Notes under the pieces: generated by a model
Databases searched by the model: none
Seen by the model: the letters and a program-made list of their open reading frames with translations, nothing else
Told to the model about the DNA's origin: nothing
Position numbers and translations under genes: made by a program
Shown here: piece after piece, positions 47,654-49,762 of the stretch
Layout: each line of letters starts with the position of its first letter
How positions within the stretch are numbered: the first letter of the stretch is position 1
Assembly (NCBI GenBank): GCA_964187785.1
Contig: OZ076409.1
Span: forward strand, 186,001-250,000
DNA length: 64,000 nt
Direction: 5' to 3'
Source: Amphiscolops sp. MND2022
Lineage: Eukaryota

Positions 47654-49762
47654 TTACACTGGAGAAACAGTATGGGTATTCGAAGTAGGGGGCCTACTTA
47701 TGGCAGGGTAAATGTGTTCGAGGGTTTCGTGCTCATTGTAATTTTTGTCTGGAGGGGTATCTGAGACCATTGGGTCATGTTGGGGAACTTGATTAAGTGT
47801 TGATATCATCGAAACTGTGAATAGATTGTAGGTTGCTGATAGAAGTATTTTGCCAATACCCCAAGAAGCTCCTGTAACTCGGTGTAGTTCAAATGAGCGA
47901 AATGTTATAACAATCACATTGACCAAAAACTTGATAAGAAGAAATCCACCAAACCACTGTCCCAATTTGCTAAACCAGTATTCGATAATACCAAAAGTGC
48001 TGATGAACTGTTCCTTGAAATATCCTGGTGATATCATGTTATCCACATAGAAATTTGTACGTGGTGCAAAGTAACCAAATTCGTCTGGTCCTTTGTCGGC
48101 AGCTGAAGGTATAATGAGTTCTCGTGAAAACTTTTGCAAGGCATTCCTCGAAGCCGCGCTGATCAGAATATTGTCCCAAAAATCGCTGAGTTGTCCTTTT
48201 GTGTACATTCCAGCATCTTGAGACTCATCGAAAGCATCTTTTGTGAAAGGAGAAATCTCTTTCGGACCGAAGATAGCAGGTCTATCTCTATGTGTAGGCT
48301 CTGGATTTAAAGAAAACCAAGAGTCCTTGTCTTGCATATCTAGTTGAAAAAGGTTCTTTATTCTATCTGTGCAATTTTGGGTATTTGCGTTAGGGTAGGT
48401 TTGTCTGGTGATGGGGTCTACGAATTGAATTTGTCCCTTGTAGAATATGGGTATTTTGTCATAACAATTGTTCATGACATGAAGAGGTGATGAAATCAGT
48501 GGGCATGAATAGAGCCAGGCGAGACTACCATCAGTTTCAAGGAACATGGATCTATTTCCAGTAAGCATGTATCCAGCAAGGCGTGGATTTTCCAAAGACA
48601 GCATTAAAATAGTTAGAATTTGGGTTCGTTCCTGTTCGCACTGGTTTTTCAACATTTGAATTTCGGAAGATTGCAGTGCTCGGGTGCTTTCGAAGAACAG
48701 GTAATCCAGTTTTGTTCCAACTTGCATTTCATAATCCATGTTGAGCCAAGTATTAACGTACTTGTCTTTAACTGTGGCATCTCTGTTGTACACGTAAAGT
48801 CCAGGTTTCCCAGAATTGTCTGTGGAGTATTGGAGGGTATAAGATCCTCTTGTTATCCCCATCTTTCTTCCGGAGGCCATGTCAAATCCACCGGTATGTA
48901 TCACAATGTACATGGACTCGTAATTTGTGGGATATACGTCGTTTGGTTTGTTGCAGAATTTTTGAGGGTAGTTCTTCACTTCGAACAAAAATTTGGAGGA
49001 GGAATCGTTGGTGCTCACCATGTGATACCTGTGTTCATTCTTTATCATATTCACATGTTCTTCTTTCAATACTGAAAGTACACAGTTATCGGGGTGGTCC
49101 CAAATATAGGCGTAGGGATCCAAGGATGTGCTTTGGCAACCCAGATCGTCAAGTTTGCATGGGAGAGGATTTCCATTTACATTGTGAACTGTTCCATCTC
49201 TCAGCTTGACGGGTAGGGTAACATCTTGAATGTGACTCTCAAAAGTATCTTTGATCATCCAAGACCTTCCAGTGCAATGGTTTCTGTTTTCTTCGCTCTT
49301 CTTTCCGTTCGTATAGGACTGAGTTAGTTTGTTTCCCTTTTTAAACTGGACCATGTGATCCAATATTTGTATCTTTCCCTCTTCTCGTGCTCTTCGACAT
49401 TGTTCGGGGCTCAAATCGATATCGCTAGTTATTGTACTTTGTTCTGCATCGATGCTCGCATGGTTATGATATCCACAATGCCATTTGAATCTACTGTGCT
49501 TTAGGCGGCACATAGTGGCATTGAGTTCTGTACGAAAGTGCTTCGTGTAGACAGTGATTATGGCTGGGTTGATTTCAATATTTTCTGGGGAAACGTGGCA
49601 GGGTCTCACTTGATTGAGCGCATATAATTTGTTTTCGGTCATTTCTCCACAGTCATAGTGCGATACACTAAGCCTTTGTGCGATGTCATCCAGGTTTGGA
49701 TTGGGGAGGCTATTGATTAGGGAGTAGCACGTAATGAATAATATCAAAATTTTACTGCACAT
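47654..49762 (-). CDS. env: Envelope glycoprotein (702 aa), chuvirus-G-like / class III fusogen-like
   Basis: Signal peptide; N-terminal HYDC..LYALNQV.PC motif; Cys-rich ectodomain with N-glycosylation sequons (NAT, NRS, NCT); C-terminal TM GQWFGGFLLIKFLVNVIVITF; second hydrophobic segment; cytoplasmic tail. Confidence 0.85.
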   Translation of the reverse strand: MCSKILILFITCYSLINSLPNPNLDDIAQRLSVSHYDCGEMTENKLYALNQVRPCHVSPENIEINPAIITVYTKHFRTELNATMCRLKHSRFKWHCGYHNHASIDAEQSTITSDIDLSPEQCRRAREEGKIQILDHMVQFKKGNKLTQSYTNGKKSEENRNHCTGRSWMIKDTFESHIQDVTLPVKLRDGTVHNVNGNPLPCKLDDLGCQSTSLDPYAYIWDHPDNCVLSVLKEEHVNMIKNEHRYHMVSTNDSSSKFLFEVKNYPQKFCNKPNDVYPTNYESMYIVIHTGGFDMASGRKMGITRGSYTLQYSTDNSGKPGLYVYNRDATVKDKYVNTWLNMDYEMQVGTKLDYLFFESTRALQSSEIQMLKNQCEQERTQILTILMLSLENPRLAGYMLTGNRSMFLETDGSLAWLYSCPLISSPLHVMNNCYDKIPIFYKGQIQFVDPITRQTYPNANTQNCTDRIKNLFQLDMQDKDSWFSLNPEPTHRDRPAIFGPKEISPFTKDAFDESQDAGMYTKGQLSDFWDNILISAASRNALQKFSRELIIPSAADKGPDEFGYFAPRTNFYVDNMISPGYFKEQFISTFGIIEYWFSKLGQWFGGFLLIKFLVNVIVITFRSFELHRVTGASWGIGKILLSATYNLFTVSMISTLNQVPQHDPMVSDTPPDKNYNEHETLEHIYPAISRPPTSNTHTVSPV

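Follow-up and report, generated by a model that had tools for sequence, protein, structure and literature searches.

Does a retrotransposon locus that holds a glycoprotein gene of the type known from negative-strand RNA viruses carry a working envelope gene, or the stray copy of a virus? The question is raised by a stretch of 64,000 nucleotides (nt) from Amphiscolops sp. MND2022 (GenBank assembly GCA_964187785.1, contig OZ076409.1, positions 186,001 to 250,000 of the forward strand; hereafter the window, in whose coordinates all positions are given). On its minus strand, an intact ATG-to-stop open reading frame (ORF) at 47654-49762, env, encodes a 702-amino-acid (aa) envelope glycoprotein (Env) of the class III type, resembling herpesvirus glycoprotein B (gB) and the chuvirus glycoprotein G, and is spanned by a long terminal repeat (LTR) element of 19.3 kb (44248-63556, minus strand). 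We conclude, with a probability of about 0.85, that this ORF serves as a functional env of class III in an endogenous Ty3/gypsy element that has been active recently. This reading is carried by the sequence family and predicted fold of Env, by the number of young intact copies of the element in the host genome, by the purifying selection acting on env and by the parallel divergence of env and pol among related elements.

A Fusion Glycoprotein of the Class III Type

Env opens with a hydrophobic, signal-like segment (residues 1-19), carries a YDC motif at residues 36-38 and contains only one other hydrophobic segment, near its C-terminus (approximately residues 600-626), with LHRVTGASWGIGKILLSAT directly after it, from residue 626. 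Its signal peptide and its one transmembrane (TM) anchor, at the C-terminus, give Env the topology of a type I membrane protein. It contains four N-x-S/T sequons and 16 cysteines, and a motif scan found no furin-type R-x-K/R-R site within its 702 aa, which is compatible with an uncleaved fusogen. A first-pass annotation, made from the letters of the sequence, had described an intact 702-aa type I glycoprotein with an N-terminal YDC motif and a TM segment followed by LHRVTGASWGIGKILLSAT, and each of these features was found in the ORF.

Regarding the family to which Env belongs, a single Pfam entry is matched at E ≤ 0.01, PF24664 (Monjiviricetes_fusion, viral fusion glycoprotein), with an E-value of 1.4e-39 and a score of 136.1 bits for a cut-off of 27, the alignment covering positions 280-602 of the 653 of the profile. 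In one database, 231 of 2915 candidates proved to be relatives of Env at E ≤ 1e-3, and PF24664 is present in all of the best 120 of these 231; in a second one, composed of representatives at 50% identity, 1363 relatives were found at E ≤ 1e-3 and 179 at E ≤ 1e-30. Across an alignment of 40 Env relatives (alignment A1), the HYDC motif and the segment following the TM anchor are kept. The clusters of the ESM Atlas nearest to Env are those of PF24664 and Negarnaviricota (score 0.96-0.97), rhabdovirus G and herpes gB coming after them. That the ORF would be a chance frame was rejected on the basis of the Pfam score (136 bits for a cut-off of 27) and of the 231 and 1363 relatives.

Among solved structures, the Env sequence had no match in the PDB chains, and the profile derived from alignment A1 had two, both with E > 1; Env was therefore folded by AlphaFold (AF2) from this alignment in order to compare folds. 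In the resulting model (mean predicted local distance difference test score, pLDDT, of 72.8), the N-terminal half (residues 27-291) is beta-rich. After a linker modelled with low confidence come a long central helix (344-388) and, at 406-492, another beta domain, then two helices (522-549 and 573-590), the TM helix (592-630) and a short cytoplasmic helix (636-656). Using Foldseek against the PDB, herpesvirus gB was found in every match listed (E 1.4e-13 to 7.7e-11, with approximately 550-820 alignment columns), and with VIA-align gB likewise accounted for all of the best 50 matches listed (Z 6.8-9.6). The likeness extends to single domains of gB, with Z 8.9-9.0 and a root-mean-square deviation (rmsd) of 3.6-4.3 Å over 152-164 residues for isolated domain IV, and Z 7.1 and an rmsd of 2.5 Å over 80 residues for isolated domain II. 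The class III prototype gB (2gum, 5v2s, 7k1s) is thus the best solved match, approximately residues 25-504 of Env corresponding to approximately residues 100-670 of gB, domains II and IV included. The two proteins nevertheless differ, since their identity is 8-13%, no match to the PDB exists at the sequence level and Env is much smaller, with no sign of gH/gL-type partners.

Among predicted viral structures (BFVD), the best match to the Env model is the G protein of Tacheng Tick Virus 4 (E 1.1e-33). In the nine best matches, with E from 1e-33 to 7.5e-29, chu-related viruses, xinmoviruses and one qin-related virus are intermixed, the top matches including a collembolan qin-related virus, a xinmovirus and dermapteran chu-related virus 142, as well as soybean thrips chu-like viruses (incl. 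4), Drosophila unispina virus 1 and Wenling crustacean virus 14; lower matches comprise rhabdo-like G, nyavirus G and herpes gB. Baculovirus F is absent from every structural match list shown (PDB, VIA-align and BFVD), and the Pfam scan of Env returned no F family. An F-type (class I) Env was rejected, since PF24664 is the only family, a furin-type site is lacking and none of the structural matches listed is a baculovirus F.

On the basis of this model, Env is a class III-type fusion glycoprotein with a gB-like series of domains, and in sequence and structure it comes closest to the G proteins found in Jingchuvirales and in other Monjiviricetes. With the latter, including Xinmoviridae-type G, Env has PF24664 in common, and they provide its best predicted-structure matches (E 1e-33 to 1e-29); unlike Env, which is encoded by a reverse-transcribing element and shares 13-18% identity with them, they stand beside N and L genes in negative-strand RNA genomes. 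The likeness to chuvirus G and class III fusogens that the first-pass annotation had proposed from motifs was hence borne out by Pfam, the ESM Atlas, Foldseek, BFVD and VIA-align alike, and the structural comparison that it had put forward as a check, AlphaFold followed by Foldseek, ended on gB and Monjiviricetes G and neither on baculovirus F nor on a non-fusogen. Its wording was too narrow in one respect, the best viral structural matches being a mixture of chu-, xinmo- and qin-related G proteins. Chuvirus G and xinmovirus-type G cannot be told apart by these matches, so that the accurate label is "Monjiviricetes class III G", although "chuvirus-like" is a fair one.

A Young Multi-Copy Family under Purifying Selection

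The element spanning env was delimited by a direct repeat with an offset of 17235, which corresponds to two LTRs of 2074 bp each (44248-46321 for the 3' LTR and 61483-63556 for the 5' LTR, both on the minus strand) with TG..CA ends and nine mismatches (99.57% identity). It is flanked on both sides by a 4-bp target-site duplication (TSD), AAAA on the plus strand, at 44244-44247 (downstream side) and 63557-63560 (upstream side), and its boundaries were set by the TG..CA ends together with these TSDs. In a search for env copies in the 1.07-Gb host assembly, 63 of the 8457 first-look candidates were scored, yielding 64 matches, and the counts that follow are lower bounds. At least 30 copies are 99-100% identical to env over residues 1-702, 28 of 30 being free of stop codons, and further full-length open copies were found at 93-96% (at least 9) and at 62% identity (at least 11).

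Six further loci of the main family (family A) were compared, five of which are full-length and constitute, with the window copy, the six full-length family-A copies. All five measure 19.2-19.4 kb, share 97-98% identity with the window copy, to which they are collinear, and have all seven ORFs open. The two LTRs are identical in four of the six copies, 99.95% identical in one and 99.57% identical in the window copy, and 4-bp TSDs border five of the six, the sixth being ambiguous. The family is very young, the window copy being an older member that has become defective. Its gag (60045-61440, minus strand, ATG at 61440) is broken, although a CX2CX4HX4C zinc knuckle, CKYCQRNGHTLQYC, is still present in it, and the window copy would therefore be mobile only with proteins supplied by sister copies, in which gag is intact (464 aa, 5 of 5). 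Two diverged subfamilies, B (approximately 85% nucleotide identity) and C (approximately 70%), have the same gene order, including the small ORFs and a terminal ORF encoding a MATH domain.

Within the main family, the ratio of non-synonymous to synonymous substitution rates (dN/dS) of Env is approximately 0.04, with for instance 17 synonymous and 3 non-synonymous differences. Between subfamilies A and B it amounts to 0.016 for env, 0.039 for gag, 0.039 for pol, 0.10 for ORF154, 0.115 for ORF169 and 0.043 for the MATH ORF; purifying selection was thus found on every ORF tested and is strongest on env. Such very low values for Env (approximately 0.02-0.05) argue that env is a working gene of the element, and selection on all ORFs that it is neither a decaying passenger nor a nested viral insertion.

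What would this gene do for the element? In the mechanism that we propose, Env would be made from a subgenomic, probably spliced, mRNA, enter the secretory pathway via its signal peptide and be glycosylated without furin cleavage, to trimerise on the membrane of Gag particles as they bud. Its internal fusion loops would then enter the target membrane without proteolytic priming, leading to fusion between particle and cell, and the element would thereby pass between cells (e.g., from soma to germline) or between individuals, so that the family would have to be regarded as a retrovirus-like agent rather than as a transposon that stays within the cell. By analogy with known fusogens, the odds lean towards Env mediating infectious entry, a role consistent with its very low dN/dS and with the many intact young copies.

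The alternative that survives best, although we judge it improbable, is that Env is kept for a role other than entry, such as receptor interference or superinfection exclusion, particle release or particle-free cell-cell fusion, or that some copies have been domesticated by the host. These roles are not discriminated by the selection data and, as retrotransposons are reported to move between cells without Env (PMC11952523), Env is not the sole route between cells. Such roles fit less well with the retention of the whole class III domain series, of the TM anchor and of the conserved membrane-proximal segment, and with the fact that selection on env is seen in dozens of young transposing copies and not at a single fixed host locus, which is expected if env serves the spread of the element itself.

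Several points weigh against a functional and possibly infectious class III env. Regarding the fold, the global template modelling scores (TM-scores) are low, with 0.17-0.21 against gB and 0.15-0.31 against gB and viral G models overall. We attribute these values to the comparison of multi-domain proteins modelled in a different conformation, and the fold match therefore rests on the Foldseek E-values and on domain-level Z-scores of 7-9.6, the latter being only moderately above the background quoted by VIA-align. Approximately 19% of the Env model lies below a pLDDT of 50, and the internal fusion loops are putative. Whatever is said here of expression, splicing, glycosylation, trimer formation and fusion is extrapolated from class III fusogens and errantiviruses. 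A low dN/dS indicates that Env matters to the element, which is no proof of infection and could fit another role. In the window copy itself, gag is interrupted by a premature stop at codon 62 (61257-61255) and, near 61117, by a frameshift. Finally, no exogenous relative associating G with an RNA-dependent RNA polymerase (RdRp) was recovered: a scan of metagenome contigs delivered nine env-bearing loci, at none of which an RdRp lies beside the G gene, and of the 25 pattern matches in a scan of viral contigs with alignment A1 none encodes a relative. The link with chuviruses is hence limited to the Pfam family and to the named models of BFVD.

A Probably Old Association between env and Gypsy pol

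Could env instead be a non-retroviral endogenous viral element (EVE), i.e., the copy of a chuvirus G mRNA that landed in or beside a Gypsy element and stayed outside its life cycle? Such a scenario has a precedent in the numerous Jingchuvirales G EVEs of Hymenoptera and Coleoptera, which are surrounded by Gypsy fragments with no clear capture by Gypsy (Dezordi et al., 2023, PMC10084718), and in the window the stop codon of pol and the ATG of env are indeed approximately 4.7 kb apart. We nonetheless consider it very unlikely here. In the six full-length copies (6 of 6) and in the two diverged subfamilies, env lies between the LTRs at the same place, and it is under strong purifying selection in this multi-copy setting; Pfam scans of the surroundings showed neither an N nor an L gene of a chuvirus. 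Moreover, two unrelated records likewise have env downstream of a gypsy pol, and env and pol diverge in step.

These two records are those among the nine metagenome loci (2 of 9) with enough flanking sequence, L025 and L031. In both, a gypsy pol is located upstream of a PF24664 env, and extra ORFs are present. Between subfamilies A and B, the identity is 95% for pol and 95% for env, and between A and C, 71% for pol and 62% for env. Between the window element and L025 it falls to 57% for pol and 41% for env, and with L031 to about 38% overall for pol (approximately 40% for the reverse transcriptase and 35% for the integrase) and 28% for env. Since the identities of pol and env drop in parallel across these relatives, an old association is favoured over a recent capture, and the sequences compared fit an env long established within this gypsy lineage, in agreement with the thesis of env-pol co-divergence defended by Chary and Hayashi (PMC13524379). 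The separate env capture proposed in the first-pass annotation is retained only in the sense that the class of this env differs from that of F-type env.

In the same two records, the extra ORFs encode proteins without Pfam match, of 368 and 312 aa in L025 (9651-12095) and of 295, 1032 and 617 aa in L031 (5803-9727 and 13392-15242). Accessory genes seem to be common in the lineage associating gypsy and PF24664.

A Ty3/gypsy Backbone

The pol gene is an open frame of 1868 aa on the minus strand (54469-60075, first ATG at 59934) which encodes a protease, a reverse transcriptase, an RNase H and an integrase in this order. Its Pfam set comprises RVT_1, RT_RNaseH_2 (1.6e-24), RT_RNaseH, Integrase_H2C2, rve, Integrase_p58_C and SH3_Tf2-1, and sets of the gypsy type were found in all 80 pol relatives, among which a read-through protein (P0425) also contains PF24664. 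The intact gag of a sister copy matches Retrotrans_gag (PF03732) with E 3.4e-5 and 24.4 bits, for a cut-off of 24.1. Up to E = 10, no BEL/Pao-specific family was found in pol, these being Peptidase_A17, DUF1758 and DUF1759, along with DUF5641. The last of these provided a positive control, as it was detected at 6.6e-27 in an unrelated fragment of the window (5050-5535). The element also has the structural characters of Ty3/gypsy, with TG..CA LTRs, a primer-binding site (PBS) past the 5' LTR and 4-bp TSDs. By its Pfam family signatures, the element is a Ty3/gypsy element (Metaviridae, errantivirus-like), and the statement of the first-pass annotation that the backbone is Gypsy rather than BEL/Pao was confirmed by the pol and gag families and by the control. 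The opposite possibility, a BEL/Pao (Anakin-like) backbone of which "Gypsy" would be a misreading, draws on a domain order common to both groups and on the fact that the only well-described retroelement with chuvirus G before 2023 is of the BEL/Pao type (PMC7642597, PMC12440569), and its likelihood is very low given the families found in pol, its lack of any BEL/Pao family, the Retrotrans_gag match, the 80 gypsy-type relatives and the detection of DUF5641 elsewhere.

The fragment that served as control belongs to a BEL/Pao-type retroelement remnant at 3452-5535 (plus strand), in which a weak hint of an aspartyl protease accompanies DUF5641.

Organization of the Element

In the element, the genes are arranged as 5' LTR-PBS-gag-(-1 frameshift)-pol-ORF136-ORF154-env-ORF169-MATH ORF-3' LTR. 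The PBS, TGGTGCGACCAGTGAG on the element strand (61464-61479, minus strand), begins with TGG, is situated 3 nt past the 5' LTR and is identical in the six full-length copies (6 of 6); ARAGORN found no tRNA gene within the 64-kb window. The gag and pol frames overlap by 30 nt, pol being in the -1 frame, and a TTTAAAC slippery heptamer (60051-60057, minus strand; T_TTA_AAC in the gag frame), a putative -1 frameshift site, is placed 6 nt before the gag stop, the -1 frame after it reading into pol (LDTGA). Given this placement and its conservation at the same position in all nine copies compared (9 of 9), drawn from three subfamilies, we infer that gag-pol is expressed by -1 frameshifting. The pol product is unusually long (1821 aa), with approximately 480 aa between protease and reverse transcriptase (approximately residues 130-620; window positions approximately 58050-59500, minus strand) devoid of any Pfam family, apart from a Macro hint at E 0.1, and with further long unassigned stretches that separate RNase H from the integrase or follow the latter.

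Two arrays of tandem repeats were detected between pol and env. The first, with units of 51 and 111 nt (51046-51593), differs in length among copies. The second (49878-50120), composed of 3.2 copies of a 76-nt unit and located 116-358 nt upstream of the env ATG, is possibly a regulatory or splice-acceptor region.

Some family members have an altered structure. At loci L011/L012, a member lacks gag-pol, its 5' LTR being joined directly to the 51/111-nt repeat region, and has kept env and the downstream ORFs intact, which makes it an internally deleted, env-only derivative. At loci L017/L018, the 3' LTR of one copy is followed by the PBS sequence and not by a TSD, suggesting two tandem elements sharing an LTR.

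Accessory Genes

Downstream of env, the MATH ORF (46345-47097, minus strand; 250 aa) encodes a TRAF-type MATH protein, with matches to TRAF-mep_MATH (5.4e-22, 78.9 bits for a cut-off of 27.4) and MATH_2 (6.3e-22). Its N-terminal stretch has, judging from its residues, the look of a coiled coil, and its counterpart in subfamily C combines MATH (5.2e-22) with weak Pfam coiled-coil matches (E 0.013-0.4); no RING or zf-TRAF domain was found in the MATH ORF by the Pfam scan. It is open in all six full-length copies of family A and present in B and C, with 31% aa identity between A and C, and its nearest Atlas clusters are "TRAF3-like" and commonest in Arthropoda. Such a RING-less MATH protein may act as a decoy for host TRAF signalling. 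Between it and env lies ORF169 (47134-47643, minus strand; 169 aa), also open in the six full-length family-A copies, which belongs to no known family (no Pfam match up to E = 1) and has counterparts of 163 aa in B (74% aa identity) and 153 aa in C (44%).

Upstream of env, ORF154 (50344-50808, minus strand; 154 aa) and ORF136 (51700-52110, minus strand; 136 aa), taken from the ORF list, proved to be paralogues when aligned (alignment A2); both are open in the six full-length family-A copies, and subfamily C possesses three paralogues. Only seven relatives of ORF154 were found, all close. Its AF2 model (pLDDT 73) has a confident core of four strands and three helices, for which no informative fold match was obtained, with a best E of 0.087 in Foldseek and a best Z of 4.8 in the wide VIA search.

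Between subfamilies A and B, synonymous divergence (dS) is 0.52-0.60 in gag-pol and 1.3-1.6 in env, ORF169 and the MATH ORF (loci L045/L046 and L041/L042). The simplest reading of this split suggests that the env-accessory and gag-pol halves have been exchanged between lineages by recombination, region-specific mutation rates being the alternative. A bolder proposal, which we regard as tentative and rather unlikely, is that the family represents a currently infectious, "complex" invertebrate retrovirus-like lineage, in which a gypsy element with a class III Env and a conserved accessory set would use its MATH protein as a decoy blocking TRAF-dependent immune or apoptosis signalling and would swap its env-accessory module between gag-pol lineages.

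Relationship to Known Retroelements

Drosophila errantiviruses (gypsy, ZAM and Idefix) are likewise built on a Ty3/gypsy backbone, their third ORF encodes a membrane fusion protein, and they are presumed to have an infectious soma-to-germline lifestyle. Their Env is of the baculovirus F type, i.e., class I and furin-cleaved, unlike the Env described here, which is class III, gB-like and without furin-type site.

[quoted passage not shown] The combination of gypsy and chuvirus-type env is thus already in print and any claim of a new association is superseded, as is the premise, taken over in the first-pass annotation, that the capture of chuvirus G is a matter of mosquito BEL/Pao (Anakin) elements. 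Like the present element, those of Chary and Hayashi have a gypsy pol, a Chuviridae-like and gB-like glycoprotein, the order GAG-POL-ENV, several near-identical intact copies and an Env that diverges with pol. Unlike them, the present one reaches 19.3 kb, has LTRs of 2.07 kb, separates pol from env by approximately 4.7 kb and possesses a conserved set of four accessory ORFs. No mention of such ORFs, of their conservation or of the modular dS pattern was found in the covered parts of PMC13524379. The PBS 12-mer and its complement, as well as five short Env motifs, had no exact-string occurrence in the supplement of this article, whose sequences are partial and gapped; judged by exact strings of the PBS only, family A is probably absent from the elements listed there. 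Among the matches listed in the literature from 2021 on Jingchuvirales glycoproteins in gypsy retrotransposons, nothing further was found.

With Anakin and related mosquito BEL/Pao elements (Dezordi et al., 2020, PMC7642597), the present family has in common an LTR retroelement using a Jingchuvirales-like G as env, but the backbone is BEL/Pao there and Ty3/gypsy here. Regarding the accessory genes, a precedent for a MATH module in a giant Gypsy element exists in planarian "Burro" (Arkhipova and Yushenova, 2019, PMC6431247), an oversized Gypsy with an env-like region, the MATH_TRAF_C of which is a separate accessory ORF in one species. Burro differs in that it is larger, that its env homology is of the gypsy/F type and lies inside a giant ORF1, and that it carries BIR, BCL2-like and other domains.

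The family described here is a very well-preserved example of this recently described class, in which Ty3/gypsy elements use a class III fusogen of the negative-strand RNA virus type instead of the F-type Env of Drosophila errantiviruses. With dozens of intact copies, LTR pairs that are identical in most of the copies examined and an Env dN/dS of approximately 0.02-0.05, it offers a practical system to address the infectivity of such Env proteins, and it raises the question of the role of accessory genes, such as the one encoding a TRAF-like MATH protein, for a retroelement. It is also a warning for annotation: what is listed as a "chuvirus glycoprotein EVE" may in many cases be the env gene of an active retroelement rather than the fossil of an RNA-virus infection.

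Elsewhere in the window, positions 22860-32538 are occupied by a 9.7-kb satellite made of approximately 190 copies of a 51-nt unit with 96% matches, in which all six frames are open and which is the source of a strong AT skew at 24-32 kb.

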